Assembly: GCA_964549305.1 (NCBI GenBank) | Contig: CAZJVM010000012.1 | Coordinates: 1-44,039, forward strand | DNA from: an uncultured bacterium | Lineage (GTDB): Bacteria; Schekmanbacteria; GWA2-38-11; J061 | DNA: 44,039 nt | Direction: 5' to 3' | Part shown: positions 1,721 through 40,337 of the stretch, piece after piece | Position numbering within the stretch: the stretch's first letter is position 1 | Layout of the letters: each line of letters starts with the position of its first letter | Program-made: the position numbers and the translations under genes | Notes under the pieces: model-generated | Seen by the model: only the letters and a program-made list of their open reading frames with translations | Database searches by the model: none | What the model was told of the DNA's origin: nothing

Positions 1721-2188
1721 ATGGCTACTGCTTTCAAATGTCAGATATCCGTGATAGGCGGTTCGAACTGCACTCCGGCGGAATACGACAAAGCCGTGAT
1801 ATTGGGAAAAGGCCTTGCCGGATTAGGCGCCATAGTTGTATGCGGGGGACTCGGAGGTATCATGGAAGCTGTCTGCAGGGGCTCTAAGGAAAACAACGGC
1901 ATCACCGTAGGAATACTTCCGGGAGAAGATTTCAAAGCGAATCCCTATGTTGACATACCGATAGTAACCGGTTTAAGTCACGCGAGAAATGTACTTGTCG
2001 CGCGAAGCGGAAAAGTCATCGTTGCCGTGGGAGGAGGGTACGGCACTTTGTCCGAAATGGCCATTGGTCTCAAACTCGGGAAAAAAATCATAGGCGTAGA
2101 TACATGGAATATTTCCGATGACGTGATTTCCGTGTCATCGCCCGATGAAGCGTTGGATATAATCAAAGACCTTATCGAGGGGGAATGA
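1721..2188 (+). CDS. LOG/SLOG-family Rossmann-fold protein (TIGR00725-like)
   Basis: CGGLGGIMEA, GILPG, ARNV and GGGYGTLSE motifs; start moved to ATG 1721 because the track start lies inside the tRNA. Confidence 0.88.
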   Translation: MATAFKCQISVIGGSNCTPAEYDKAVILGKGLAGLGAIVVCGGLGGIMEAVCRGSKENNGITVGILPGEDFKANPYVDIPIVTGLSHARNVLVARSGKVIVAVGGGYGTLSEMAIGLKLGKKIIGVDTWNISDDVISVSSPDEALDIIKDLIEGE

Positions 2189-3069
2189 AAAGGAATCTGC
2201 TTTTAACAGGAGCAAGCGGGCTTTTAGGGTGGAATATGCAAGAAAGGCTTGCGCGCGATTTCGAGGTTTTCGCCCATTATCAAAGAAATAAATTTATCAG
2301 AGATGAATGCATACCCTGCCAATTCGATTTAAAAAGCGGTAAGACACTCAAAAAAATATTGCAGGAGATAAAACCTGAGGTAGTTATTCATGCCGCGGCA
2401 TTGACAAGCATTGTCTTCTGCGAAGAAAATCCTGAGGATACATTCAGGATTAACAGGGATTCAACAGGCATCCTCGCGTCAATATGCGCCGATATGGGGT
2501 GCAAATTTGTTTTTTTTTCAACGGATATAGTTTTTGACGGAGAGCAGGGCAACTACATTGAAACAGACGAGTTAAATCCTCTGAATGTCTATGGTGAATC
2601 CAAAGCGCAAGCAGAAGGGGTAATTGCGAAAAGCACCGATGATTTTCTCATATTGAGAATATCTATGACATACGGGTTTAACAACAGCGCCCATAAATGC
2701 TTCGCCGGAAAATTAATTGACTCATTTAATAGGGGGGAGATTCAAAACCTTTACACGAATCAAATAAGGTGCCCTAATTACGCCGGCGATACTGCAGAGA
2801 TAACGGCACGACTTTTATCATCCGGTGAAAGAGGAATTTTTCACTGCGCCGGACCTGAAGCATTGTCGCGGTATGAAATAGGAAAATTGATTGCAGATAA
2901 GTTTTCTTTTGACATTAAAAAAATAAATCCTGTAAAAGTAGATGAATATTTACTCCCTTTTAAAAACGGCATAGATTGCTCGCTGAACAGCGACAAGGCA
3001 TATCGCGCAACAGGTGTTAAGGGCATTAGTCTTGGAGAGGGGATTGATATTATAAAAACTTCCTTTTAG
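2185..3069 (+). CDS. dTDP-4-dehydrorhamnose reductase-like SDR (RmlD family)
   Basis: TGASGLLG, HAAA, STDIVFDG and YGESK (YxxxK) motifs; ATGA overlap with the upstream gene. Confidence 0.85.
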   Translation: MKRNLLLTGASGLLGWNMQERLARDFEVFAHYQRNKFIRDECIPCQFDLKSGKTLKKILQEIKPEVVIHAAALTSIVFCEENPEDTFRINRDSTGILASICADMGCKFVFFSTDIVFDGEQGNYIETDELNPLNVYGESKAQAEGVIAKSTDDFLILRISMTYGFNNSAHKCFAGKLIDSFNRGEIQNLYTNQIRCPNYAGDTAEITARLLSSGERGIFHCAGPEALSRYEIGKLIADKFSFDIKKINPVKVDEYLLPFKNGIDCSLNSDKAYRATGVKGISLGEGIDIIKTSF

Positions 3070-3079
3070 GAGAAGAGCA

Positions 3080-4378
3080 ATAGAAGAAATAGTAACAAAA
3101 GTTGAAAAAGCTATTTACGGAGGATATGGATTAGGCCATTTCTTTGACAAAGCAATTCTCATAGAAGGCGCTATTCCCGGAGAAACTGTAAAAGCTTTGG
3201 TCATAGAAGAAAAAAAGGATTATCTTGTAGGGAAAATAAACGGTTTTATAAAATCGTCTCCTTCAAGAATAACTCCTCCCTGCGCCTATTATGACTCCTG
3301 CGGAGGATGCCAGTATCAGCATATAGCATATAAAACGCAGACATCGATAAAAACCGACATTGTAAAGGAAAGTTTGGAAAGAGTAGGGGGAATAGATAAT
3401 GCAAACGTCAGCAATACAATGCCATCTCCCGAAGATTTAGGATACAGAAGCAGAGTTGAGTTAAAGATTACGAGAAAGACCAGGAGAAACGAACCCTTTC
3501 TCGGATTCTATATGAAGAATTCCCATAAAATAGTCCCTATCTTCAAATGCGTCGCCTGCAATGGCAAGATAAACGAACTGATAGAAGCGATAAACTTTTA
3601 CAGTCCTGTGTTAATGAAAAAAAACAGCGACATAATAAGAATATCTTACAGTGCCACATCAGGAAATATCTTGTTGAACATAAAAGGGAAGGGACTTCAG
3701 AAACATTCTATGAAATCAATTTATGAAGAGATGAGAAAATACTCTCCCGGTTTGAAAGGTTTGCTTTATGGCAATGGGAAGATTACCAAAGCAATTGGGA
3801 AAGAATACCTGTTTGAATCAATAAATAATATTAAATATCGCGTAAATTCAGATAGTTTCTTCCAGATTAATAGTCTATTGCATGAAGCTTTTGTAAAAAC
3901 CGTCTTATCCATTTTTTCTCCCCGGAAAAAGGAGATAATACTTGACCTTTTCAGCGGTGTAGGAACATTTTCCCTTCAGTTAGCATCAAAAGTGGCATCA
4001 GTTACCGGAATCGAAAGCAATGAAACTGCTGTTAATGATGCTAAATTTAACGCTAAAAACAATAAAATAGGCAATGTATCATTTATCTGCGGAGATGTTT
4101 CCTTAGCAGTTGAAAAAATATTCAATACGGAAACTTCAAACATAACATCTGTGTTGATTAATCCGCCGAGAACCGGATGCAGTGTGGAGTTGAAAAGGGC
4201 ATTGGTTAAATCAAATGTCGACAAGATCGTATATATTTCCTGCGATCCGTCTACGCTTGCCAGAGATGTATCTTATTTTACATCCAAAGGATTTTTACTG
4301 CAGAAAGTCCAACCTATAGATATGTTTCCTCAAACGATTCATATAGAAACAGTAGTTTCTATGACAAGGGACAACTGA
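3080..4378 (+). CDS. rlmD: 23S rRNA m5U methyltransferase (RlmD/TrmA family) with TRAM domain; probable ATA start
   Basis: CAYYDSCGGC Fe-S motif, SFFQIN, DLFSGVG, NPPR, YISCDPSTLARD, DMFPQT. TRAM-like sequence (GGYGLG...GAIPGETV) extends in frame to ATA 3080, 7 nt after AGGAG. Confidence 0.88.
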   Translation: MEEIVTKVEKAIYGGYGLGHFFDKAILIEGAIPGETVKALVIEEKKDYLVGKINGFIKSSPSRITPPCAYYDSCGGCQYQHIAYKTQTSIKTDIVKESLERVGGIDNANVSNTMPSPEDLGYRSRVELKITRKTRRNEPFLGFYMKNSHKIVPIFKCVACNGKINELIEAINFYSPVLMKKNSDIIRISYSATSGNILLNIKGKGLQKHSMKSIYEEMRKYSPGLKGLLYGNGKITKAIGKEYLFESINNIKYRVNSDSFFQINSLLHEAFVKTVLSIFSPRKKEIILDLFSGVGTFSLQLASKVASVTGIESNETAVNDAKFNAKNNKIGNVSFICGDVSLAVEKIFNTETSNITSVLINPPRTGCSVELKRALVKSNVDKIVYISCDPSTLARDVSYFTSKGFLLQKVQPIDMFPQTIHIETVVSMTRDN

Positions 4379-4528
4379 CTGTCAATTCATACCTGTGCAA
4401 AAGAGAAACAGATTTTTCATAATTTATCTTTAGCAGATTTACCTGATAAAAATACCGCGTATTCCACAGATTAAAGACAAACTTATCAGTCGTCATCTGA
4501 CAGGGGATAATGATTTGAGATAAATACA

Positions 4529-4556
4529 ACGTCTGATAAGATATATTATGTTAACT
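4529..4556 (+). other. dif: dif site (XerC/XerD chromosome dimer resolution site)
   Basis: ACGTCTGATAA-GATATA-TTATGTTAACT has the 11-6-11 layout and a right arm matching the XerD consensus TTATGTTAAAT at 10/11; intergenic between convergent genes. Confidence 0.85.
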
Positions 4557-4630
4557 TTTGTTCTCTTCGTTTAAATTACCGGTATTTCTTTGAATAATTG
4601 AGCTTAACGGGAAACTATTCGCTTTATTAT

Positions 4631-6688
4631 CTAAAAGCTCTGGAGGACTTTTAATTCGGCAATATCTTTTGTTCCTGAATCATCGTACTTGCTTGCTTCT
4701 CCTTTTATAGTTGCTTCAGAATCCAGTTCGCTGTCGCCTTTTACATTCCACCCGCCAATTGTCCTTTCGATATCTCCGTCTGATAGTGTGAATTCTTCCA
4801 CAAGGTTTTTCATATCAGAGATGTTCTTTTTCAACATAATGAGCGCGCTCGCTGTTCTTTCAGATGATGATGCATATGCTGATGTGTCTTTGTTAATGTC
4901 ATACATTGAATCTTTTAGCTGTTTGATTCCAAGGTCCTGTTCACGACAGGAATCATTTATACCCTCGACCATATGCCGTATATTTCCGGTATTTTTATTT
5001 ATCTCTTCTAGGCGCCCTTTCACCGTTTCCTGTACGGAAAAACCATCTTCCACACTCTTTATGCTTTGATTTACAAGTGCGGTTGTTTCATTTGCCGCTT
5101 CGGCGGACTGTATTGCGAGATTTCTGACTTCGTCGGCGACAACAGCAAAACCCCTTCCCGCGTCTCCCGCACGCGCTGCCTCCACTGCCGCGTTTAAAGC
5201 AAGCAGATTTGTCTGGAAAGCTATTTCATTGATACTTTTAATAATCTTACCCGTGGATGTAGTAGAGTCTTTTATTTTCCCCATAGATTCGGTAAGTGTA
5301 TTCATATCTTCTTTGCCTCTTCGGGCAAATTCGCTCGCCTCATTGCACATTTTACTCGCATCGGTCGTGCGTTCGGTATTTTCCGATACCATAGCGGCAA
5401 TTTCTTCAAGACAGGTAGATATCTGCTCGATTGAGCGCGCCTGAGTAGTCGCGCTTTCTGCTACATTATGACTTTCCGACGATATTTCATCACAGGCAGA
5501 GCATAACTCATTTGCAAGGATATCAACCTTTTTAAGACTATTATCAAGATTGTCCAATGCGGAATTGAAACTCTTCTTTATCCTGTCGTGCTCGCCGTAA
5601 TACTCTCCCACCATTCTTACGGACAGGTCCTTGCCTTCAACTGCCGCAAGAGCAATAGACGCTTCGCTTAGGGGATAATACATTGATTTTAACATTCCGT
5701 TAATCTGATAAATAAGCTGTTTATAAATTCCTTCATACTTATCCTCATCCGCCATAAGGCTTATGTCACCTTTTGCCGCTTTTTCAAAAAGCCTGGATAA
5801 ATCATCAACAAGCTCATCCATAACCTGCATATATTTTATTAATTTTTGAAAATTAGACGAAAGTTCATCCTTTTCGGAAAGAGGTGTCAAATCAATTGCA
5901 AATTCTCCGTTACTCAATCTGTTAGCTGTTTCCGCAATCCTTTTGATATAATCTCTCATATCCCTGAAGGACTCTGAAACTTTCCCGATCTCACCCTTTG
6001 ATTTGCAGTCAAAAGTCTGATCCACATCTCCCCACGATATTTTTTCCGCTTTTTCTGCTATATTTCTGAGAGGTTTCGTTATTTTATTTGAAATAATCAG
6101 AGAAAGGATGAATCCCACAATACCGGTTATAAGAGTCACGAGAAAAATTAGCTGCAATGTCTGATGGTTCTCTTCTAAAACCATTACTCCCGCTTTTTTC
6201 GACTGATTTCCGGCATTTACGAGCACCTCTTCAATTCTTTTCTCTACACTGTCCGCGATTGTTCGGGCTTTTGCAGTAAGGGCAATACCTTTTACTCTGT
6301 TCCCGGCGATATAGGCATCAACAGCTTCATTCATTGTTTTTATATATTCATCTACGCTGTTGTGCAGTGAAACAGAAAAAGCCATATTACGCGTTTTACC
6401 CTGACTGAGTATTCTTTCAAATTCTTTCCGTGCCTTTTCCGCGTTTTCTTCCGATTCACTGCTGAAACTTACTGTCAAGTCGGTCATCCAGTAAGTTATA
6501 TTTGAAAATGTTTTAGAAAGGTGGTTTACGGATTCTTGAAACGTGAGTGTAAACTTTTGATTATTTATCGCATCAGTGCTTTTACTGATTTTTTGGCTCA
6601 TATAAAAGATAGAACAAGTAAACATGAGAATAATCATGCCGTTTATGGCAACAATTTTACTGCCAATGCCATATTTAAACTTATTCAT
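4631..6688 (-). CDS. Methyl-accepting chemotaxis protein (2 TM, helical sensor domain, multiple HAMP domains)
   Basis: [37 protein letters not shown] signalling hairpin; HAMP-like ITKPL...EIGKV segments. Confidence 0.95.
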
Positions 6689-6726
6689 AACTCATACTCC
6701 TTTATAAGTTATATTGGATACTTTTT

Positions 6727-7470
6727 TTATTTAAAGGGATAAACAACGCTTATCGCCCCTCTCAAGTCCCCTTCCCTGTATCCCTCTTTTTTTCGCCCTG
6801 TTATGTCATATTCACCTGCAGGTTCTCCGTGGCACATAAGGCAAGCATGCTCCACATATAGGGGTTTCATATAACGGACAACTTTCGTTCCGTTATTTGA
6901 AATAACCTCGTAATAATCCTTTCCCTTCGGATAACCGGCTTTTTCAAATTCCGTAAGTATCTTGTCTTCAAAACCGTCGGGTTTATTAGCCCTGTTTCTG
7001 TACCGGTGCGATGTTTGTTTCAAGGTTATTCCCGTTTTCTCCTTGAAATGCTCGCCCACATACAATCCGAAACTTGCGGGAATAAATCCCTTGAATCCCT
7101 CGCCTTTTTTGTTAATTACCGGTTGTGCCTCATTTAGTATTTCTTTTATCGATTGAATAAATTGTTTAAAAACTTTATTTTCTGAAATATTGCCACTGTG
7201 CAATAAATCTTTTCCCGTACGTGCCTTATACTCATTGGACATCTTCTTTATGAATATTTCGGAGGTAAGTCCCTTGTCGCCTATGTCGGGGTTATTGATA
7301 AGCGTCTGATTTTTCGCTACTACAGACCTTCCCGAAACAAGCGCCATTGCAAGGTCTTCGCTTATCTCACTGCCATCGGTAATCGCGTAGGCATTCGCCT
7401 GAATAGCAAACGATAAGGCAAACACATATAAGATGGCGAAAACTTTTTGCGGGAAAGATTTGATTATCAT
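6727..7470 (-). CDS. Exported c-type heme protein, DUF3365/Tll0287-like domain
   Basis: Signal peptide ending ANAYA; RNRANKPD.FE, RYMKPL...CLMCH (CxxCH), GDLRGAISV; start taken at ATG 7470. Confidence 0.82.
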   Translation of the reverse strand: MIIKSFPQKVFAILYVFALSFAIQANAYAITDGSEISEDLAMALVSGRSVVAKNQTLINNPDIGDKGLTSEIFIKKMSNEYKARTGKDLLHSGNISENKVFKQFIQSIKEILNEAQPVINKKGEGFKGFIPASFGLYVGEHFKEKTGITLKQTSHRYRNRANKPDGFEDKILTEFEKAGYPKGKDYYEVISNNGTKVVRYMKPLYVEHACLMCHGEPAGEYDITGRKKEGYREGDLRGAISVVYPFK

Positions 7471-28882: not shown

Positions 28883-31078
28883 CTATGTGTAGATTGACTG
28901 GATTTTTTTCAGGATTGCCACATTTTCGGAATGACCGGAAAGGTTTGCCGTGATTTTCCCTCTGATAGGCCTTCCGAGAATGAAGAAGTCGCCCAGTATG
29001 TCAAGTATCTTGTGCCTTGCAAACTCGTCCTTGAATCTAAGCTCCGTATTGATGACTTTTTCATTGTCGAGAAGCACCACATTGTTGAGGCGTCCGCCGC
29101 TTATAAGCCCCTTCTTCTCAAGATATTCCACATCTTTCAGAAAACCGAACGTCCTTGCGGGAGCGATTTCCTTTTTGAAACTTTCCGGGCTGTTGCTTAC
29201 AAATTCCGCGACCTGCTTCCCGATTGGCGCCGGATAATCCATTATGTATTTTACCGAGAAGCCGTCAAAGGGCTCTATCTTGATATATTTAGTTCCTTTG
29301 TCCTCACTTCCGTGAATTATTTCTCTGTCTATGACTATCTCTTCAACAATGTTTTCCTGCTCTACGACGCCTCCGTCTTCAATCAGCTCGCAGAAATCCT
29401 GTGCCGAACCGTCCATAATTGGTACTTCATCGGTAATCTTAATGAGAAGATTGTTAATTCCGTAGATGTGAAGCACTGCCATTATATGCTCTATGGTCTT
29501 TACATTGGATTTTCCCTTCTTCAGGGATGTGGCGTGCTCGGTAGACTCCACATTTTCCAATTTGGCTTTCACTGTCTCTCCTGTTGAGACATTTGCAAAA
29601 ACTATTCCCGTGTCGGGCGGTTGCGGAACAAGTATGAGTCCTGTCTTGAGCCCCGAATGAAGTCCCTGTCCGCAAAGGACAACACTCGTTTTGAGTGTTT
29701 TCTGAAAGGACCGCGGTTCTCCGTGTTTTTTCTTCTTTTTTGAAAGGCCAAAAGATTTTATTTTCTTCTCGAGGGTCTTCTTGCCTATACCCATCTCTTT
29801 TGACGACGCATTCAGGTCCCATTTATTTTTCTTGAGAATGGTTTTGACATATTCTTTTTCCCATTTCTTTTTTGCATCCTTCAGAGAGTATCCGTCATAA
29901 TCGAAAGTCCTCGTGTCATCTCTGCCCCTGATTATCGTTTTAACATCAGCATCCGATATGCTTCCCGTAGGCACGGAAATAGCAAGGCGTTCAAGAATAT
30001 TTTTCAATTCCTTCACATTGTTGGGCCATTTATACATTAAAAGCTCTGTCATAGCCTCATCGTCTATCTCGCGCATTCCCCTGCCGTAATCCTCGCTAAT
30101 TTCCTTGATAAAGCAGTTGACAAGTTCGGGTATATCTTCCCTTCTGTCTCTCAACGGAGGAAGATAAATCGAAGAGGAAAAGAACTCCAGCAATCCGGGG
30201 ATAAGTGTATCTGCGAAATTATCTCCGTTTACATCTTTTTCCGTTGCCGCGAGAAGTCTGAATTTGACGAAAAACGCTTTCTTGCCCCTGATTCTGGAAA
30301 ATCTTTTCGTTTTCAAAAGATTCAGGATTTTTTCCTGAGTTTTATGAGAGAGTTTGTCAATACCGTCGAGAAATACAGTGCCGTCAGATGCAAGTTCAAG
30401 CTTGCCCCGTTTCGACGCACCATTGCCGTTTTCCCTGTTTATTCCAAATATTTCCTGTTCCACAATCTCATCGGACACTGAAGCACAATTGATTTTTACG
30501 AAGGGTTTTTCACGCCGCACGCTGTTTTCGTGGATTATTCTTGCCACAAACTCCTTCCCTGTTCCCCTTTCTCCATATACCAAAATACAGGAATCATTGA
30601 GCGATGCTGCCTTTATCTGCTTTCTCACGTCTTCGATTTCATCGCTTTTCCCAACAAGTTTGAATCTTTTGACCAGTTCCCTTTTCATTTCGAGCTTTTC
30701 GCTGTTGATTCTCTTTCTCTCAAAGGTGCGGTTTATCGCCGAAAGAAGGACATCGAGGGACAGCGGTTTTTCTATAAAATCAGACGCGCCGAGTTTGAGC
30801 GCGCGAACCGCGGTATCTATGGTGCCGTGTCCGGACATAATCACGACTTCAAGGTCCTTTTGAAATTCCTTTATGTTTTTGAGTACTTCTATGCCGTCCA
30901 TACCCGGCATCCAGATATCGAGAAGGACCATGTCCGGAGGAACTTCCTTAATCATTTCAATCGCCTGAGGACCGTCAACCGCCTTGGATACATTGTATCC
31001 TTCATCGGTGAGTATACCTTCAAGCGTTGAACCTATATTTTTTTCATCGTCGACTACAAGTATGTGTCCTTTATGCAA
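28883..31078 (-). CDS. lpxC: Fusion of an NtrX-like response regulator (REC, degenerate sigma54-type AAA+, Fis-HTH) and UDP-3-O-acyl-GlcNAc deacetylase LpxC
   Basis: aa 1-120 receiver (VVDDE, D54 in LLDIWMPGMDG, FIEKP); AAA+ with GERGTGKE; HTH; aa ~459-731 LpxC (QKTL, GQGLHSG, TIEH, EVPIMDGS, IAPARTFGF, RHKILDILGD, SGH). Confidence 0.93.
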   Translation of the reverse strand: MHKGHILVVDDEKNIGSTLEGILTDEGYNVSKAVDGPQAIEMIKEVPPDMVLLDIWMPGMDGIEVLKNIKEFQKDLEVVIMSGHGTIDTAVRALKLGASDFIEKPLSLDVLLSAINRTFERKRINSEKLEMKRELVKRFKLVGKSDEIEDVRKQIKAASLNDSCILVYGERGTGKEFVARIIHENSVRREKPFVKINCASVSDEIVEQEIFGINRENGNGASKRGKLELASDGTVFLDGIDKLSHKTQEKILNLLKTKRFSRIRGKKAFFVKFRLLAATEKDVNGDNFADTLIPGLLEFFSSSIYLPPLRDRREDIPELVNCFIKEISEDYGRGMREIDDEAMTELLMYKWPNNVKELKNILERLAISVPTGSISDADVKTIIRGRDDTRTFDYDGYSLKDAKKKWEKEYVKTILKKNKWDLNASSKEMGIGKKTLEKKIKSFGLSKKKKKHGEPRSFQKTLKTSVVLCGQGLHSGLKTGLILVPQPPDTGIVFANVSTGETVKAKLENVESTEHATSLKKGKSNVKTIEHIMAVLHIYGINNLLIKITDEVPIMDGSAQDFCELIEDGGVVEQENIVEEIVIDREIIHGSEDKGTKYIKIEPFDGFSVKYIMDYPAPIGKQVAEFVSNSPESFKKEIAPARTFGFLKDVEYLEKKGLISGGRLNNVVLLDNEKVINTELRFKDEFARHKILDILGDFFILGRPIRGKITANLSGHSENVAILKKIQSIYT

Positions 31079-31089
31079 TTTCTCTCCTT

Positions 31090-33324
31090 TTAAGCCGCTT
31101 TGACAGGCAACTCAATTACAAAGATTGTTCCCTGAGGTTTGTTGTCTTTGACCCGGATATAACCGCGATGTTCGGATATTATGGAATTCACTATTGCCAA
31201 ACCCAGTCCCGTTCCTCTTTTTTTTGTGGAAAAATACGGCATAAACAACCTCTCCTTTATATTGGGAGGAATTCCCGTGCCGTTGTCGGAAATTTCAATT
31301 TTAACTGTCTGAAGTTCCCTTAAATAATCTATCTGTACGTTTATTTCCCCTTTTCCTCCCATTGACTCAATGGCATTGTCTATGAGATTTATAAAAACTC
31401 TCTTGATTTGATCAGGGTCAAGTTTGAGTTGTGGAACCGATTCAGTATTTATAATGTTTATTTTAACATTTCTCATACTTGTCTTGTAAAGAGAAATAGT
31501 TTCATTTGCCAAATCTTTTATATTTACGTCCACAGGGTTGAAAGACGGCATTCTGGCAAAATTGGAGAATTCATTTACCATATTCTTCAGGTCATCGACT
31601 TCCTGAATGATAGTATCGACGCAACTTCTAAAAATTTCGCTGTCTTCACTGCCGTCCTGAAAATACTTCTTTTTAAGGCGCTGAGCCGATAATTTTATAG
31701 GAGTGAGGGGATTTTTGATTTCGTGCGCTATACGCCTCGCCACCTCTCTCCACGCGGCAACTCTTTGCGCCCTCACAAGTTCCGTCGTATTTTCCAAAAC
31801 CATTACTAAGCCGATCTGACTTTTTTGGTTATCAAATAATTGGCTCACATTAACCATAAATGTAAACACCTCTCCCTTTATGTTGAGATTAACCTCTTCC
31901 TCGACGCTTATTTCCTGCATCTCTTCAAGTTCGAGAAGGATTCTTCTTAAGGGGTCTAATTTTGCAGTGGCAAAAACATCTTTGTAAAGTTTGCCGGTAA
32001 AATCGGACACTTTCATATAAAGCATTTCCTCTGCCGCGGCGTTTATTGTAGTTATTCTGCCCCATCTGTCACAGGAAATAACTCCGGTGCCAATATTCTC
32101 GAGAACAGTTTCGATATAGTTTCTTCGAAGGTCAAGCTCGCGGTTTGTCTTTTGAAGACTTCTGTTTTTATCCTGAAGGGCGATTTCCTTAACCTTGATA
32201 TCGTTGGTCATTTTATTGAAAGAATCCACAAGAATTCCTATTTCATCTTCACTCTTGTCATTGACCTTGATATCCATGTGAAAATCAAGATTGCCGCTCG
32301 ACACTTCTTTTGTCCCCTCGGCAAGCTGTCTTATCGGTATGGTTATTTCCTTTGCAAGCTGAAAACCGAACCACATAGCGGCAAAAATGACAAGAATGGT
32401 AACGATTGCAAACATAGCTATATAGCTGTTAGCTATGGGCTTCTTCAGTACCTCCTTCTGACGGTAGTCATCAAACGCGAGCGCGGCAGACCTTATGTCC
32501 TGAGTCAGGCTTCTTGAAAGATAATAGCCCACTGCAACAACACCTATTTTATTTTTTTTTCTGTTTTTAAGGGAAACCAGCCCATAGATGAATTCTCCGT
32601 CTTTGGCCGGCAAAACAGTGGACAGCTTATCCGTTAAGAGGATTTTTTCTATAACATCGTCGTCGGGTTCCACTTCCTTGTCATCGTCGATATCATCAGA
32701 TACCGCTTTTATTAACCGCTTCCCCTTGGCATCATAAACATTGATCAGGTTGATTTCATATTCCTTCAGCTTCGAATTGATATAGTTTTTGAGATAACGG
32801 CTGTTTTTTGACGCTATCAGGTTTCTGCGCACAATGGATTTGCCAATCGTGCCGGAATAATGCTCCGCCCGTTTCTTGATATCATCATAATATCGCTCGG
32901 AAACTTTAATTGCCCCCTGCAGTGACTGCTCCACAGGAACGCTGAACCAATACTCCATTGTTTGCGATATGAGGAATCTCGCATAAAAAAAGAGGACCAC
33001 AGAAGGAATGATAGTGAGCAGAAAGAAGGAAACAATGAGCTTTGTCCTGAATTTAGCGCCCGGCACAAGGCGTTGGCGCTCAAAATAGAGCTTTACGATA
33101 TTCCTTACAATGAGATAGACAAGCACAATGAGGAACATAAAGATGATATTGTAGAAGGAATAAAAAACAATGTAGTTCCCGATGGGAGATGAAGCGCTTA
33201 TATTCTGAGTGGTTATTTCAACTATTAGAAGAACAATAAAGAGAAGCACACATCCCGCAACTGCAATAATTGTCCTTCGCCTTTTAAAATCAGGTTCTCT
33301 GTGTGTTTTATTATTCTCAGACAT
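31090..33324 (-). CDS. ntrY: NtrY-like membrane sensor histidine kinase (TM, periplasmic domain, HAMP, PAS, HisKA, HATPase)
   Basis: GAKFRTKL, WREVARRIAHEIKNPLTPI.LSAQRL, VNEFS.FARMP, NLIDNA, DNGTG, PYFSTK, GTGLGL. Confidence 0.92.
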   Translation of the reverse strand: MSENNKTHREPDFKRRRTIIAVAGCVLLFIVLLIVEITTQNISASSPIGNYIVFYSFYNIIFMFLIVLVYLIVRNIVKLYFERQRLVPGAKFRTKLIVSFFLLTIIPSVVLFFYARFLISQTMEYWFSVPVEQSLQGAIKVSERYYDDIKKRAEHYSGTIGKSIVRRNLIASKNSRYLKNYINSKLKEYEINLINVYDAKGKRLIKAVSDDIDDDKEVEPDDDVIEKILLTDKLSTVLPAKDGEFIYGLVSLKNRKKNKIGVVAVGYYLSRSLTQDIRSAALAFDDYRQKEVLKKPIANSYIAMFAIVTILVIFAAMWFGFQLAKEITIPIRQLAEGTKEVSSGNLDFHMDIKVNDKSEDEIGILVDSFNKMTNDIKVKEIALQDKNRSLQKTNRELDLRRNYIETVLENIGTGVISCDRWGRITTINAAAEEMLYMKVSDFTGKLYKDVFATAKLDPLRRILLELEEMQEISVEEEVNLNIKGEVFTFMVNVSQLFDNQKSQIGLVMVLENTTELVRAQRVAAWREVARRIAHEIKNPLTPIKLSAQRLKKKYFQDGSEDSEIFRSCVDTIIQEVDDLKNMVNEFSNFARMPSFNPVDVNIKDLANETISLYKTSMRNVKINIINTESVPQLKLDPDQIKRVFINLIDNAIESMGGKGEINVQIDYLRELQTVKIEISDNGTGIPPNIKERLFMPYFSTKKRGTGLGLAIVNSIISEHRGYIRVKDNKPQGTIFVIELPVKAA

Positions 33325-34423
33325 AATTTCTCATAAACATTTTGCCTGAAACCTGCTTTACAGCACCGGTTATTTCAAGCTTCATTAGAATTGACGAAAT
33401 TCTGCCCATTGGAATTTCACAATCCTTTGAAATAATGTCAATATGCCGCGGGGTATCGTCAAGACGAGAAAGAACGGAGATTTCATCCCTGTCCCCCTTT
33501 AAAGCAACGGCACGCGATTCGGGATGCTCTCTGTTTTGAGCGGAAGGGAAAAAATCATTCATTGCATTCTCAATATCGTCAAATGAATCAACCAGTGTGG
33601 CACCGCTTTTTATGAGACCGTTGGTTCCTTTGCTCGTGGACGATATAATGCTTCCCGGAATCGCAAAAACATCCCGTCCCTGTTCGAGAGCGAAACGGAC
33701 TGTTATCAGAGTCCCGCTTTTTTCTCCTGCTTCTATGACAAGAGTTGCCCTGCTGATACCGCTGACGATTCTGTTTCTTCGCGGGAAATTCATCTTATGG
33801 GGAGGTGTCCCTATGGGAAATTCGGAAATTACCGCGCCCCTTTCGCAAATCGATTCGTAAAGTTTACGGTTCTCAGGCGGATAAACCCGGTCAATACCGC
33901 AACCAAGGACTGCAATCGTATAACCATTTTTCCTGAGGGCGCTTTTGTGCGCGATTGTGTCAATTCCCCGCGCCATTCCGCTTATTACGGCAATCCTTCT
34001 ATCCGCAATTTGACAGGAGAATTTCTCCGCCATCATTTTTCCGTATTCACTGGGTTTTCTTGTGCCGATTACGGAAATGCCTTTTACTTCACTGTGAAGT
34101 TTTCCCCTGCAGTAAAGCACAGGAGGTGGTGTGGATATTCCTCTGAGAGATTCTGGGTAACCGGAATCTTCCACGGTAATTATCGATATACCTCTCCTGG
34201 AAATAGCTTCAAGTTCTTTATCAGCATACTCACCATATATCATTGATAATGCTAATTTTATTTCATTGTTATTTTTCAGAATAGTATCGGGAAAACCGTT
34301 TTTTCCGGCATTGATGAGAGCAGACGCGCTTTCATAATGCCTCATCAGTTTTAAAAAAACTTCCGGTTTTTTGTACGCGAGAAGGTTTAATCCAATCCAT
34401 TCTTTTTTTTCATCGATACTCAT
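33317..34423 (-). CDS. dprA: DNA-protecting protein DprA/Smf
   Basis: YPESL, PPPVLY, VIGTR, SGMARGID, FPRRNRIVSG, EAGEKSGTLIT; C-terminal winged helix. Confidence 0.96.
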   Translation of the reverse strand: MSIDEKKEWIGLNLLAYKKPEVFLKLMRHYESASALINAGKNGFPDTILKNNNEIKLALSMIYGEYADKELEAISRRGISIITVEDSGYPESLRGISTPPPVLYCRGKLHSEVKGISVIGTRKPSEYGKMMAEKFSCQIADRRIAVISGMARGIDTIAHKSALRKNGYTIAVLGCGIDRVYPPENRKLYESICERGAVISEFPIGTPPHKMNFPRRNRIVSGISRATLVIEAGEKSGTLITVRFALEQGRDVFAIPGSIISSTSKGTNGLIKSGATLVDSFDDIENAMNDFFPSAQNREHPESRAVALKGDRDEISVLSRLDDTPRHIDIISKDCEIPMGRISSILMKLEITGAVKQVSGKMFMRNYV

Positions 34424-35070
34424 TTTTTCCGCTTATCCTCAACGAGTAAACTAATATCACCTATTATATCATTTAATACCTTTTCGGGTATCTTATATTT
34501 CACGCCCATATTTTCGATTGCCGAGACAACCTTATCCTTTTGGGAATCATTTTTCCCCGGCGAAACGCAATTCTCACAATCACGCTGTATCGCCTTTTCT
34601 CCCGAGGTTACGGAAATATCCTCGTAATCCTGGGAATCAGAGCTGAATGCGATGCATTTGTCCTTCATCATTTTTCTCTTCAAGCGGAGGTATTCATCGT
34701 CTGAAAGCCCTCTTTTTTTTCTTTCGATAAACCACGATATGTTTATTGCCAAGGGCGCGGCAACAGTTAATAGACCCGTAACCGTAGGACATCCGGTTTT
34801 CCCCCTGAATATCTTTCTTATTTGAGAATTAAACCCCTTGCCTATGGTCATCCCTTTGATTTCCCCCAACAATTCCTTAAAAAGAGGGCAGGTTTTTTCA
34901 GGCGTTTCATTCATTTCGAGTTCTACGTCTATAATCTCAAATTGTGGAAAGGTAACAAAAAGGATAAGGGTAATATCATGCACTACATCCTTAATAGACG
35001 CCCTCACCCTCATAACACCTTCTCTTATCTCGTCGAGATCGATGAGGATATTTCTAACGAATATTGACAT
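34420..35070 (-). CDS. DUF2889-like Cys-containing protein
   Basis: D.VHDI, P..TCP, G.TGCP and KCIAF pattern recalled for DUF2889; extra C-terminal CENC. Confidence 0.6.
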   Translation of the reverse strand: MSIFVRNILIDLDEIREGVMRVRASIKDVVHDITLILFVTFPQFEIIDVELEMNETPEKTCPLFKELLGEIKGMTIGKGFNSQIRKIFRGKTGCPTVTGLLTVAAPLAINISWFIERKKRGLSDDEYLRLKRKMMKDKCIAFSSDSQDYEDISVTSGEKAIQRDCENCVSPGKNDSQKDKVVSAIENMGVKYKIPEKVLNDIIGDISLLVEDKRKK

Positions 35071-37084: not shown

Positions 37085-38044
37085 TCAGTTATCTTTCAAG
37101 CTTGATAAAATATTTAGCGCAAGCTTAAGGGAGCGCAATTCGTCTTCTTCGGTATACATCCTCTTGCCTGTGCCAAGAATGCAGTCAACAAGATGCTTTA
37201 TCTGAAGCTTCAGAGGGTTGTCCTTGTAAACAAATATTCTTTCAATGAATGATTCCTGCTTATAGCGGATTTCCTGCCTGCTGACGAGATATCCTGAATC
37301 CGCCCTTCTGTGGATATGGATATCCTGGTCGGTATAATCGAGGAAGATATAGGCGTCCTTTTGGGTTATTGCAAGAGTGCGCAACTTGTTTTCCGAAACC
37401 CTGCTTGCGACTACCGTAGCGATACATCCGTTATTGAATTTAAGCTGTACGCTCGCCACATCATATCTGCCGGAACATATTTTCTTGCCGAAAGCCGAAA
37501 ACTCTTCCGGCATATCGCCTATAATATTGAGGATGATATCGAGGTCGTGAATCATCAAATCCATTACAACATTATCGTCCTGCGCCCTTGTTATGAAGGG
37601 ACCTATCCTTCTGCTTTCCATCAAAAAGGGATCTTTTACTATTTTTTTAAGCTCCTGTACTGCGCCGTTGAATCTTTCAACATGTCCGACCTGGAGAATA
37701 AGATTTTTTTTGTTGGCAATTTCGAAAAGCTCCTCTGCCTGTTTGTATTCAGTAGTAAATGGTTTTTCGACCAAGACGTGGACTCCCGCTTCGAGACATT
37801 CCTTCGCCACTTCGTAATGATTTTTCGTGGGCACGGCAATGCTCACAAAATCGACATTTTTCAGAAGTTCGCGGTAGTCATTATAGCCCTCTATCTGATA
37901 TTTTTCCGACAACTCTGAAACCTTGCCGGAATCAATATCGGCTATGCCGAAAAAATCCACATTATTAAGCTGTTCGGCATAGACGTTCACGTGATAATGA
38001 CCCATATGACCTGTCCCTATAACTCCCGCCTTTATCTTATTCAA
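37085..38044 (-). CDS. Gfo/Idh/MocA oxidoreductase, probable UDP-GlcNAc 3-dehydrogenase (GnnA-like)
   Basis: GTGHMG..H, HVLVEKP, QVGHVERFN, DLMIHDLD, ASRVS; located between lpxA and lpxB. Confidence 0.8.
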   Translation of the reverse strand: MNKIKAGVIGTGHMGHYHVNVYAEQLNNVDFFGIADIDSGKVSELSEKYQIEGYNDYRELLKNVDFVSIAVPTKNHYEVAKECLEAGVHVLVEKPFTTEYKQAEELFEIANKKNLILQVGHVERFNGAVQELKKIVKDPFLMESRRIGPFITRAQDDNVVMDLMIHDLDIILNIIGDMPEEFSAFGKKICSGRYDVASVQLKFNNGCIATVVASRVSENKLRTLAITQKDAYIFLDYTDQDIHIHRRADSGYLVSRQEIRYKQESFIERIFVYKDNPLKLQIKHLVDCILGTGKRMYTEEDELRSLKLALNILSSLKDN

Positions 38045-38835
38045 AATATGTCTCCCTCTTCCCTTTCGCGCTTACAGACTCCGCGCTTTGATGATTTTAC
38101 AAATTCCACAAAATGAAGGACCTCTTCCGTCTGCTCCACATCTGTGTATATTTTTTCAATAGCTTCCTCATTTGACAACCCGGACTGGAAAAATATTTTA
38201 TAAACTTTTTTCAGCGCATCGATTCCGCTCCTTGAAATGCCGCTTCTTCTCAATCCCACTAAATTAAGCCCGTAAGGCACAGTGGTAATACCCCATACTA
38301 TTGTGAAGGGAGCGATGTCCTTTGAGATTCCTGAAAATCCCCTTACAAGTGCAAGTTTTCCGATTCTGCAGAATTGATGTATTCCCACAAAACCCGATAT
38401 AATCGCTTTATCTTCTACCGTAACGTGTCCCGAAAGCCCCGCATAGTTGGTGATTATTGCGCCGTTGCCTATTTTGCAGTCGTGTGCAATGTGAGAATAG
38501 GCCATAAGCATCGCGCCGTCTCCCACTGTGGTTATCCCCTCTTCTTTCGACGACCTGTGTATTGAGACATATTCTCTTATGCTCACATTATCGCCAATGG
38601 AAACATAGGATTTTTCGCCCTTGTATTTAAAATCCTGAGGAGGACCTCCGATTGCGGCACCTGCTTCTATTCTGCAATTTTTCCCTATCTTAGTCCATCC
38701 CTCAACACGGACATTCGAGGATAAAACAGTGCCGTCTCCGATTGTAACATCCTTATTGACAACGGAAAAAGGACCTATTTCAACATCTTTCCCTATTACC
38801 GCGCCTTCTTCGATTACTGCCGTTTTATGAATCAT
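38041..38835 (-). CDS. lpxA: Acyl-ACP--UDP-GlcNAc acyltransferase
   Basis: Hexapeptide repeats, PQDFKY, IREYV, MAYSHIAHDC, HQFCRIG, GLNLVGLRR. Confidence 0.96.
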   Translation of the reverse strand: MIHKTAVIEEGAVIGKDVEIGPFSVVNKDVTIGDGTVLSSNVRVEGWTKIGKNCRIEAGAAIGGPPQDFKYKGEKSYVSIGDNVSIREYVSIHRSSKEEGITTVGDGAMLMAYSHIAHDCKIGNGAIITNYAGLSGHVTVEDKAIISGFVGIHQFCRIGKLALVRGFSGISKDIAPFTIVWGITTVPYGLNLVGLRRSGISRSGIDALKKVYKIFFQSGLSNEEAIEKIYTDVEQTEEVLHFVEFVKSSKRGVCKREREEGDIF

Positions 38836-39304
38836 CTCTACCGGACTTTTTTAAATCGTCAAGGTATTCATCTGACACAAACGCCTGAAGTTCTCCTTCT
38901 GTAACAACTTCGCCGTCAACAAAGGCTTTCGCGTCAACTTTCCACAAGGGTCCCCTTCTGTGGGTGACAATGACTTCCATTTTCATAACATCACCGGGGC
39001 GCACTTTCTTTCTGAATTTTACTTTATCAACACTTCTGAAATAAACAATTTTCTGAAACTCGCCGGTGCTTTGGAGAAGGAGAATACATCCAACCTGGGC
39101 GAGTGCTTCTATAATCATTACTCCGGGCATTACGGGGTATTCTCCGAAATGTCCCAGAAAAAAAGGTTCGTTAAAGGTAACGTTTTTCACTGCCACTATC
39201 CTTTTTTCCTTTTCAAATTCAGTCACCTTGTCAACCATAAGAAAAGGATAACGGTGCGGCAAAAGTTTCAGGATTCTGTCAATATTAAAAATAACTTCTT
39301 CCAT
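38825..39304 (-). CDS. fabZ: 3-hydroxyacyl-ACP dehydratase
   Basis: LPHRYPFLMVD, KNVTFNEPFF.GHF, PVMPGVMIIEALAQ; start at ATG 39304. Confidence 0.96.
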   Translation of the reverse strand: MEEVIFNIDRILKLLPHRYPFLMVDKVTEFEKEKRIVAVKNVTFNEPFFLGHFGEYPVMPGVMIIEALAQVGCILLLQSTGEFQKIVYFRSVDKVKFRKKVRPGDVMKMEVIVTHRRGPLWKVDAKAFVDGEVVTEGELQAFVSDEYLDDLKKSGRDDS

Positions 39305-39308
39305 TTTT

Positions 39309-40337
39309 TTATTTTTGCCTCCTCTTTTCAAGGTCATTAATTTTCTTTTCAAGTTCACGGATTTTTTTGAAGATGTCGGGAATCTTGGGCAAACACGCCT
39401 GAGTCCTGCGCCATTTTCTGTGCTCGAAGGCGGGTGCTCCGCTAACCATTGAATTTGCCGGAAGGTTTTTTCCTATACCGGATTTCGCGCCAACCATTGT
39501 GTTATCACCGATACGCACGTGGTCAGCAATTCCAACCTGTCCCGCAAGCATAACATTGTCGCCGATTTTACAGCTTCCCGATATGCCAACTTGTGACACC
39601 AGTATGACATTCCTGCCGACTTCCACATTATGGGCAATCTGAACATGGTTATCTATTTTTGTTCCCTCTTTAATAATCGTCTCACCGAGAGTCGCTCTGT
39701 CAACGCTTACGTTTGAGCCGATTTCAACATCATCTTCTATTATCACCTTTCCGACCTGAGGAATTTTTACATGCGTCCCGTTTTCCTGCACATAACCGAA
39801 ACCATCTCCCGCAATGGAACTATTGGAATGAATCCTCACTCTTTTGCCGATAAGGGTTTCCTCTCTTACCGAAACATTCGAGTACAAGACCGTATCGTCC
39901 CCGATTTTGGAATCTTTGCCTATGTAAACCCCGGGATAAATACTCACTCTGTCGCCAATTTCCACATTGTCTTCTATGACTGCGTAAGGATAAATTGACA
40001 CATCCTTTCCCATCTTAACTTTGTTGCCTATTGACGCTTTTTCATCGATACCGAGGGGAGACTTATCTCTGACTTTGTAAAGCTCAACGACTCTTGCAAA
40101 ACTGAGGTAGGGATTTTTAACAATTATCAGTGATGCTCCGCATTCGGGTATGTCAACGGGTGCAATTACTGCGGAAGCAGACGTGCTCTTTACAGCGTTC
40201 AAAAACTTTTCCGCGGCAATGAAAGTAATATCTCCTTCCCCGGCGTTTTCTATGCCTGAAACATCCTTTATTACCACCGAAGGATTGCCTTTTAATTCTC
40301 CGCCAAGATATTCAGCAATTTCTTTTACGGTCTTCAA
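39309..40337 (-). CDS. lpxD: UDP-3-O-(3-hydroxyacyl)glucosamine N-acyltransferase
   Basis: NPYLSFA, DGFGY, KIPQVG.V, VDRA, KIDNHVQIAHN, GQVGIADH. Confidence 0.96.
   Translation of the reverse strand: MKTVKEIAEYLGGELKGNPSVVIKDVSGIENAGEGDITFIAAEKFLNAVKSTSASAVIAPVDIPECGASLIIVKNPYLSFARVVELYKVRDKSPLGIDEKASIGNKVKMGKDVSIYPYAVIEDNVEIGDRVSIYPGVYIGKDSKIGDDTVLYSNVSVREETLIGKRVRIHSNSSIAGDGFGYVQENGTHVKIPQVGKVIIEDDVEIGSNVSVDRATLGETIIKEGTKIDNHVQIAHNVEVGRNVILVSQVGISGSCKIGDNVMLAGQVGIADHVRIGDNTMVGAKSGIGKNLPANSMVSGAPAFEHRKWRRTQACLPKIPDIFKKIRELEKKINDLEKRRQK

Follow-up and report, generated by a model that had tools for sequence, protein, structure and literature searches.

The contig analysed here, 44,039 nucleotides from an uncultured bacterium of the Schekmanbacteria (CAZJVM010000012.1; its whole length is referred to as the window), encodes on its minus strand a protein of 731 amino acids (28883..31078) in which an NtrX-like response regulator is continuous with a complete LpxC. 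LpxC catalyzes the committed step in the synthesis of lipid A and is both the point at which lipopolysaccharide synthesis is controlled and a target for antibiotics. The protein has the layout of a response regulator with an enzymatic output, namely an intact phospho-acceptor receiver covalently joined to a catalytic domain, and its gene lies just behind that of an NtrY-type sensor histidine kinase. By analogy with other regulators of this type, we propose, with a probability of roughly 0.55, that phosphorylation driven by NtrY would control LpxC after translation. These features suggest a direct signalling switch on outer-membrane synthesis, undescribed so far.

The open reading frame (ORF) starts with TTG, ends with the stop codon at 28883-28885 and contains no internal stop. 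Along the minus strand, on which all its parts lie, it encodes a receiver (REC; residues 6-116, 30731..31063; Pfam Response_reg, 2.5e-32), a sigma54-type AAA+ core (residues 141-284, 30227..30658; Pfam Sigma54_activat, 2.7e-39, profile positions 1-146 of 168), an AAA+ lid (residues 310-388, 29915..30151; Pfam AAA_lid_14), a Fis-type helix-turn-helix (HTH; residues 407-442, 29753..29860), a basic flexible linker of 12 amino acids (KKKKKHGEPRSF; residues 447-458, 29705..29740), in which the predicted local distance difference test score (pLDDT) falls below 50 at residues 449-453, and a complete LpxC domain (residues 459-726, 28901..29704; Pfam LpxC PF03331, 2.6e-84, profile positions 1-266 of 268). 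The phosphorylation site of the receiver comprises D10, D11, D54 (codon 30917-30919), S82 and K104. The LpxC part scored 283 bits against a cut-off of 27 with PF03331 and 247 bits with the NCBIfam model TIGR00325 (lpxC; cut-off 187), and it was matched by LpxC chains of the PDB at about 1e-56. It contains the motifs TIEH (528-531), RHKILD (688-693) and SGH (714-716), and its zinc and catalytic residues are E530, H531, H689, K690, D693, D697 and H716; in E. coli LpxC, we take the zinc ligands and the catalytic Glu/His to be E78, H79, H238, D242 and H265. The domain reaches the end of the ORF without a C-terminal tail, and fabZ is a separate gene (38825-39358) that is not part of the fusion.

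The N-terminal 445 residues gave NtrX (NF051870) as the top NCBIfam model with 356.5 bits; because this is below the equivalog cut-off of 600 bits, we call this part NtrX-like rather than NtrX. The top PDB match of the fusion was Brucella NtrX (5m7n; residues 5-444, 2e-75). The HTH aligns with that of the Brucella protein and is predicted to form three helices; its Pfam match is borderline (HTH_8 at 20 bits, where the cut-off is 22). These results bear out what the first-pass annotation, made by a model from the sequence alone, had claimed about the single uninterrupted ORF with its REC, AAA+, HTH, linker and LpxC parts and about the positions of the receiver and LpxC residues. The absence of a start codon from the linker was likewise confirmed by reading the sequence: around SKKKKKHGEPRS, no in-frame ATG, GTG or TTG occurs across residues 441-470. 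The AAA+ module that had been reported is present, but it is degenerate: Walker A is retained (GERGTGKE), Walker B reads FLDG, with DG instead of DE, and the GAFTGA loop is missing.

The receiver and LpxC are the most constrained parts of the family. In a MAFFT alignment of 124 full-length fusions, each of the seven LpxC residues named above is present in all 124 proteins, as is S/T82 of the receiver; K104 is found in 123, and D10, D11 and D54 in 122 each. Mean pairwise identity amounts to 0.61 for REC and 0.65 for LpxC, versus 0.36 for AAA+, 0.42 for the lid and 0.39 for the HTH. The Walker A lysine (K175) is kept in 121/124 fusions and the Walker B aspartate (D238) in 73/124. The catalytic glutamate expected at position 239 occurs in none of the 124, compared with 94 of the 101 closest unfused relatives, and a GAF[TS]GA motif is likewise found in no fusion and in 60 of these 101 relatives. 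Since the Walker B glutamate and GAFTGA have been lost and AAA+ identity is low, the AAA+ of the fusion is, to judge from the alignment, a decayed, non-hydrolysing module, and on the same grounds classical activation of sigma54 is not open to the protein. The decay is a trait specific to the fused clade.

Shorter members of the family are also found. An exhaustive search of 50%-identity representatives retrieved 265 proteins, which were dissected by domain-wise queries. The full REC-AAA-HTH-LpxC order was found in 104, REC-AAA-LpxC in 20, REC-HTH-LpxC in 3 and bare REC-LpxC (420-460 amino acids) in 17, the rest being N-terminally cut fragments and unfused regulators. Of 18 short forms that are complete, every one has S82, K104 and the seven LpxC residues, 17 have D10 and D11, and 16 have D54. 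The linkers of these proteins vary and are of low complexity.

A FastTree phylogeny was built from 129 LpxC domains, taken from 55 of the 124 long forms, 48 REC-LpxC proteins (some of them N-terminally incomplete), 3 REC-HTH-LpxC proteins and, from whole genomes, 14 stand-alone LpxCs and 9 LpxC-FabZ proteins. The tree did not include 69 redundant long forms, 62 fragments or 32 doubtful metagenomic LpxCs of 'stand-alone' type; the last were judged unreliable because most of them begin at a methionine inside the conserved N-terminus and come from contigs roughly 1 kb in length. The 106 REC-fused LpxC domains formed one clade with a support of 100 and a stem length of 0.47, outside of which the nine LpxC-FabZ genes fell. 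Within this clade the short forms are interleaved among the long ones, with at least three label changes forced by well-supported branches. The simplest reading of the tree is a single fusion event, after which AAA+ and HTH disappeared repeatedly, and the fusion would have arisen in an ancestor common to several phyla. Because the short forms nest within the single fused clade, REC plus LpxC is, on this phylogeny, the constant core of the family. Secondary fission may have taken place inside the clade, as the 32 metagenomic 'stand-alone' LpxCs were left out of the tree. In one genome (G040; L014, C65:50560-54366) an LpxC-FabZ gene and a stand-alone LpxC lie about 640 nucleotides apart and group in the tree; this pair looks like a tandem duplication.

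Full-length, stop-free orthologues were found in 5 of the 40 other genomes searched, with identities of 78% in the same genus (G001), 67% in the same family (G002), 57-58% in two genomes of the same order (G003 and G004) and 47% in a genome of another lineage (G007). In a search of the long proteins of a collection of 5.8 billion sequences, the best 120 matches all contained LpxC, and the full-length ones also contained REC, AAA+ and the lid. Among the matches listed, the closest came from Candidatus Schekmanbacteria (84% over query region 420-731), and the source names were Candidatus Schekmanbacteria, Nitrospinae/Nitrospinota/Nitrospinaceae and Thermodesulfobacteriota; homologues of the fusion are annotated there merely as LpxC or as NtrX. 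The first-pass annotation had proposed looking elsewhere for the combination of REC, Sigma54_activat, HTH and LpxC, and had implied that the fusion was unique. The fusion recurs in these five genomes, and more than 120 full-length homologues were among the matches listed; it belongs to a large family and is no one-off.

The phylum of G007, which is not that of the window, was covered by 92 genomes that are at least 80% complete. Exactly one LpxC match was present in 88 of them, and these 88 loci lie in open frames of at least 670 amino acids (75 loci) or of 460-516 amino acids (6 loci), or are indeterminate at contig ends or in fragments (7 loci); none of the 88 is in a frame of stand-alone LpxC size. 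The whole-protein query gave a colinear match to residues ~1-727 in 47 of the 92 genomes; the remaining 28 long frames missed the threshold of E 1e-115 with this query and are not counted as confirmed fusions. The architecture also occurs in complete single-contig genomes of this phylum. Homologues from named metagenome-assembled genomes (MAGs) at the corresponding level of identity are from Nitrospinota.

The first-pass annotation had also raised the question of whether the fusion is the only lpxC of its genome. It is: the window genome, scored 100% complete, has a single LpxC locus, and the fusion is the only LpxC in all six long-fusion genomes checked (the window genome, G001-G004 and G007). 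Similarly, a REC-LpxC of 426 amino acids is the only LpxC of a further genome, G021 (95% complete). The window contains lpxA, lpxD and lpxB, and lpxK and the Kdo transferase gene (waaA) are present on another contig. Because these genes are there and no other LpxC is, the gene content indicates that the fused enzyme must supply the LpxC step of the pathway. A LapB orthologue was not detected with a whole-protein model (best score 41 bits, versus 363), which found only matches at the level of tetratricopeptide repeats. A search by zinc-ribbon domain was set aside, since its sole match was RadA and the control was positive in 10 of 14 genomes, indicating that the model is unspecific. With no LapB orthologue detected and no C-terminal extension on LpxC, the enterobacterial route of LpxC control is not evident from the sequence of the fusion or its genome.

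The kinase that precedes the fusion has 744 amino acids (31090..33324, minus strand) and contains the Pfam domains NtrY_N (the membrane/extracytoplasmic region), HAMP, PAS, HisKA and HATPase_c. It is the only NtrY_N match of the genome. Its TAA stop codon (31090-31092) is directly followed by an AAGGAG ribosome-binding site (31084..31089, minus strand), which is separated by 5 nucleotides from the TTG start of the fusion, so that 11 nucleotides lie between the two ORFs, as the first-pass annotation had it. An ntrY gene is found immediately 5' of the fusion in G001-G004 as well as in L053 (Thermodesulfobacteriota), L056 and L057 (both from unclassified MAGs), the last three loci also sharing a downstream purM. 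An NtrY-type kinase also precedes a bare REC-LpxC, in L103 (a Syntrophobacter MAG). In another locus (L068, from a Deltaproteobacteria MAG; 1788-7181), two NtrX-like genes stand in tandem behind ntrY, and both lack a fused LpxC.

Response regulators with enzymatic outputs include the methylesterase CheB, the GGDEF proteins PleD and WspR, and the HD-GYP protein RpfG. The fusion resembles the CheB/PleD type in its intact receiver, flexible linker, catalytic domain and adjacent cognate kinase, and the bare REC-LpxC has exactly the two-domain layout. It differs in that its output is an essential enzyme of lipid A biosynthesis and not a signalling enzyme, in that the form found in the window has a relic AAA+ and an HTH between receiver and enzyme, and in that dependence on phosphorylation is here inferred. 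We envisage that an NtrX-like regulator, with its receiver, decayed AAA+ and Fis-type HTH, was joined once to LpxC. NtrY would sense an envelope or periplasmic cue and would phosphorylate D54 of the fused receiver. The resulting change of receiver state, most likely dimerisation or the release of an inhibitory contact as in CheB/PleD, would post-translationally alter the activity, availability or stability of LpxC, and would in this way set the flux into lipid A. DNA binding by the HTH is probably retained in the long form, where the same phosphorylation may also adjust transcription. Kinase-driven control of LpxC was the first of two ideas put forward in the first-pass annotation; it is favoured by the fact that REC and LpxC are always kept and are the most constrained parts, and by the kinase that precedes a bare REC-LpxC.

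The structural model of the long form had a mean pLDDT of 87.5 and a predicted template modelling score (pTM) of 0.48, with dips in confidence at 131-135, 217-219, 387-392 and 449-453, and its modules are predicted to sit on flexible linkers. The model of the two-domain form of G021 (pLDDT 91.2, pTM 0.75 vs 0.48 for the long form) gives a weak hint of a defined packing of REC on LpxC in the short form. Docking of REC (1-122) on LpxC (455-731) gave scores of 0.01 and 0.00, which we counted neither way. Eight LpxC positions (465, 475, 480, 539, 547, 563, 602 and 669) are fixed across the 106 fused LpxC domains, at a level of at least 93%, and differ in 23 ordinary ones; they include K547 (Glu in 18 of the 23 ordinary LpxCs), Y539 in place of Leu and C563 in place of Val. 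From their distribution in the alignment, these eight residues are candidates for a receiver contact surface.

Several observations weigh against control of LpxC through the receiver. With the modules on flexible linkers (pTM 0.48) and the short-form linkers variable, a rigid allosteric path is not evident. The HTH is detectable by domain query in 104 of the 124 long forms; this retention argues that DNA binding is still under selection, and it could be the main output of the long form. To our knowledge, there is no precedent for a response regulator with an LpxC output. NtrY is not adjacent in 7 of the 11 named loci with enough flank (L055, L058, L059, L060, L061, L080 and L113), a count that excludes L054, the upstream flank of which is too short; L058 has only a weak generic kinase match 5' of the fusion. 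Nor is NtrY adjacent to the fusion in the phylum of G007; in G007 itself an orphan NtrY orthologue lies 220 kb away. The REC-LpxC of G021 likewise has no adjacent NtrY, and a 32%-identical NtrY orthologue lies on another contig there. Finally, the outgroup of the tree was small (23 genes, 41 genomes), and the 32 possibly stand-alone metagenomic LpxCs were excluded from it.

We considered the possibility that the long form acts mainly by regulating genes. Some enzymes, such as PutA and BirA, are DNA-binding 'trigger enzymes'. The fusion might in the same manner be mainly a sigma70 transcription factor of NtrX type that acts on envelope genes, its own operon possibly among them, and, being present in equimolar amounts with LpxC, it would feed back directly on the LpxC level; phosphorylation would then tune DNA binding and not catalysis. 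The retention of the HTH in most long forms, its alignment to the HTH of Brucella NtrX and its three predicted helices speak for such a role. So do reports that NtrYX represses lpxC transcription in alphaproteobacteria (PMC7240162, PMC12444477) and that the Desulfovibrio vulgaris regulator DVU2934 has lpxC as its single mapped target in the data described (PMC3333781). Yet HTH and AAA+ were lost several times in the clade while REC and LpxC stayed, so this cannot be the function common to the family. Furthermore, the HTH evolves fast (0.39 identity) and is below the Pfam cut-off in the window protein, and no conserved upstream element was found in three genomes, in itself an uninformative result. 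We regard regulation of genes as unlikely to be the main role, although it is compatible with, and not exclusive of, control of LpxC by phosphorylation. The second idea of the first-pass annotation, that LpxC substrate occupancy feeds back on transcription through the HTH, cannot be a general function, given that parts of the clade have repeatedly dispensed with HTH and AAA+; for the long form it is possible.

The other alternatives concern the fusion itself. It is distinctly improbable that the NtrX-like protein and LpxC are tethered for co-expression only, with receiver and enzyme uncoupled. The flexible linkers and the low pTM would agree with this, and the unfused ntrY-ntrX-purM locus of genome G036, which corresponds to the synteny of the window minus lpxC, shows a route by which lpxC inserted beside ntrX could have fused to it by loss of a stop codon. 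However, whole lineages have the fused form fixed as their sole LpxC, the fused LpxC clade has a long stem branch (0.47) and eight clade-specific fixed residues, and the REC-LpxC forms keep an intact phospho-site without any other output domain, which is hard to explain if receiver and enzyme are uncoupled. We give very little credence to a split or two-form polypeptide, in which free LpxC would be the active species, released by linker cleavage or made from an internal start or by slippage at A_AAA_AAG. The linker is basic and predicted to be disordered, and a heptamer A AAA AAG, which has the same letters as the classic -1 slip site of dnaX, is in frame at 29735-29741 (minus strand) within the codons TCA AAA AAG. 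Internal start and -1 slippage were nevertheless rejected: residues 441-470 contain no start codon, the nearest upstream methionine (M432) is not conserved in the family, the lysine run is confined to the closest relatives, and the -1 frame is open for about 90 codons (ORF 29454..29822), so that slippage would give no clean NtrX. The heptamer is probably incidental. That the fusion results from an assembly or sequencing artefact joining two adjacent genes is a practically negligible possibility, despite the A-rich run at the junction and thin read-level support. The latter, for which the first-pass annotation had called, comes from one public contig of 426 nucleotides (29429-29854; depth 2.9), which crosses the junction with no differences and is possibly from the source sample; of the other low-depth public contigs, one ends inside the junction and two do not reach it. 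An artefact was rejected, since both halves share one frame and the same stop-free architecture is conserved in independent genomes (47-78% identity), in complete single-contig genomes and in more than 100 database proteins.

Control of LpxC by the phosphorylated receiver also fits what has been reported on NtrYX in alphaproteobacteria. Loss of NtrYX in Rhodobacter sphaeroides is described as increasing lpxC mRNA 8.8-fold and raising lipopolysaccharide (PMC7240162), and according to a 2025 review NtrYX represses lpxC in Rhodobacter and in Caulobacter (PMC12444477). More tentatively, we entertain a wider scheme that seems to us possible rather than probable: NtrY would read the envelope and the phosphorylated receiver would gate LpxC catalysis or turnover without a transcriptional step; LpxC-based envelope homeostasis would be the ancestral job of NtrYX; and the transcriptional link between NtrYX and lpxC in alphaproteobacteria and the bare REC-LpxC would represent two different outcomes of a single ancient circuit.

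The fusion shares with NtrYX systems the REC, the AAA+ without GAFTGA, the Fis-type HTH and the adjoining kinase with NtrY_N; NtrX is itself described as lacking GAFTGA in a preprint (bioRxiv 10.1101/2023.06.06.543975). It differs from NtrX in carrying a whole LpxC and in missing the equivalog cut-off, and Brucella NtrX keeps LDE in Walker B in the alignment, whereas the fusion has lost the glutamate (LDG). The taxa with the fusion are Schekmanbacteria, Nitrospinota and Thermodesulfobacteriota, in contrast to the known NtrYX-lpxC systems, which are from Alphaproteobacteria. The lack of GAFTGA and the LDG Walker B also set it apart from sigma54 enhancer-binding proteins. The stand-alone LpxC of E. 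coli, subject to FtsH/LapB proteolysis, belongs to the same family and shares all catalytic residues; the fusion has no C-terminal tail and no detected LapB. LpxC-FabZ, like the present protein, results from an lpxC gene fusion and is the sole LpxC of its genome, but here the partner is N-terminal and regulatory and not a C-terminal FabZ. Like PutA and BirA, the fusion combines an enzyme with a DNA-binding domain in a single chain; there is, however, no homology, phosphorylation would be the switch, and part of the fusion family does without the HTH. The first-pass annotation knew of no characterised example, and we found no description in the full-text literature of a fusion between LpxC and a receiver or NtrX, a scope that takes in neither supplements nor most subscription journals; the words 'fusion' and 'fused' are absent from the text available of the review PMC12444477.

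Upstream of ntrY, dprA (33317-34423, minus strand) overlaps it by 8 nucleotides and is itself overlapped by 4 nucleotides by a DUF2889 gene (34420-35070, minus strand). As judged from these overlaps, DUF2889 and dprA are probably in the same transcription unit as ntrY and the fusion. The DUF2889-dprA-ntrY-fusion block is kept in the window genome, G001 and G002, and dprA-ntrY-fusion in G003, a DNA-uptake protein being thus associated with the two-component pair. The regions 5' of DUF2889 in the window genome, G001 and G002 gave no convincing alignment and no conserved upstream element among these three genomes only. A scan found 20 promoter-like sites (14.3 ± 3.8 expected) and 8 terminator-like sites (7.4 expected), neither number being above chance; the strongest minus-strand promoter-like site, at 35157-35129, is a lead only in a scan at chance level. 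Further 5' of the fusion, on the same minus strand, is a bamA-skp-lpxD-fabZ-lpxA-gfo-lpxB cluster, to which the first-pass annotation had implicitly attached significance. No lpx genes are present within 7-10 kb upstream of the conserved block in G001, G002 and G003. The adjacency of the fusion to the lipid A cluster is incidental, because the two are unlinked in these three genomes, one of which (G001) is of the same genus. The gfo gene between lpxA and lpxB (37085-38044, minus strand) encodes an oxidoreductase of the Gfo/Idh/MocA family, members of which, in some bacteria, produce the UDP-GlcNAc3N from which diamino lipid A is made; the lipid A backbone of this bacterium may thus be modified. 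In G021, the gene for REC-LpxC (L043, 7759-9039 of contig C7) sits in an infB-nrnA-truB-purA-REC::lpxC arrangement without a nearby kinase. Purine genes flank the fused lpxC both there (purA) and in the window (purM and purN).

Regulation of LpxC is understood mainly in enterobacteria, where it proceeds through FtsH/LapB proteolysis. Outside this group it is treated as largely open in the relevant part of a 2025 review (PMC12444477). A regulator covalently attached to LpxC, in some relatives a bare receiver, makes the control of lipid A flux in non-proteobacterial diderms testable. The fusion appears to be present in cultured Nitrospina species, to judge solely from homologues in named MAGs; if isolates do carry it, in vivo work may be possible. 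Should LpxC indeed be controlled by the fused receiver, an essential biosynthetic enzyme would join the known outputs of response regulators, and NtrYX, a system still poorly understood, would gain a concrete, conserved target.

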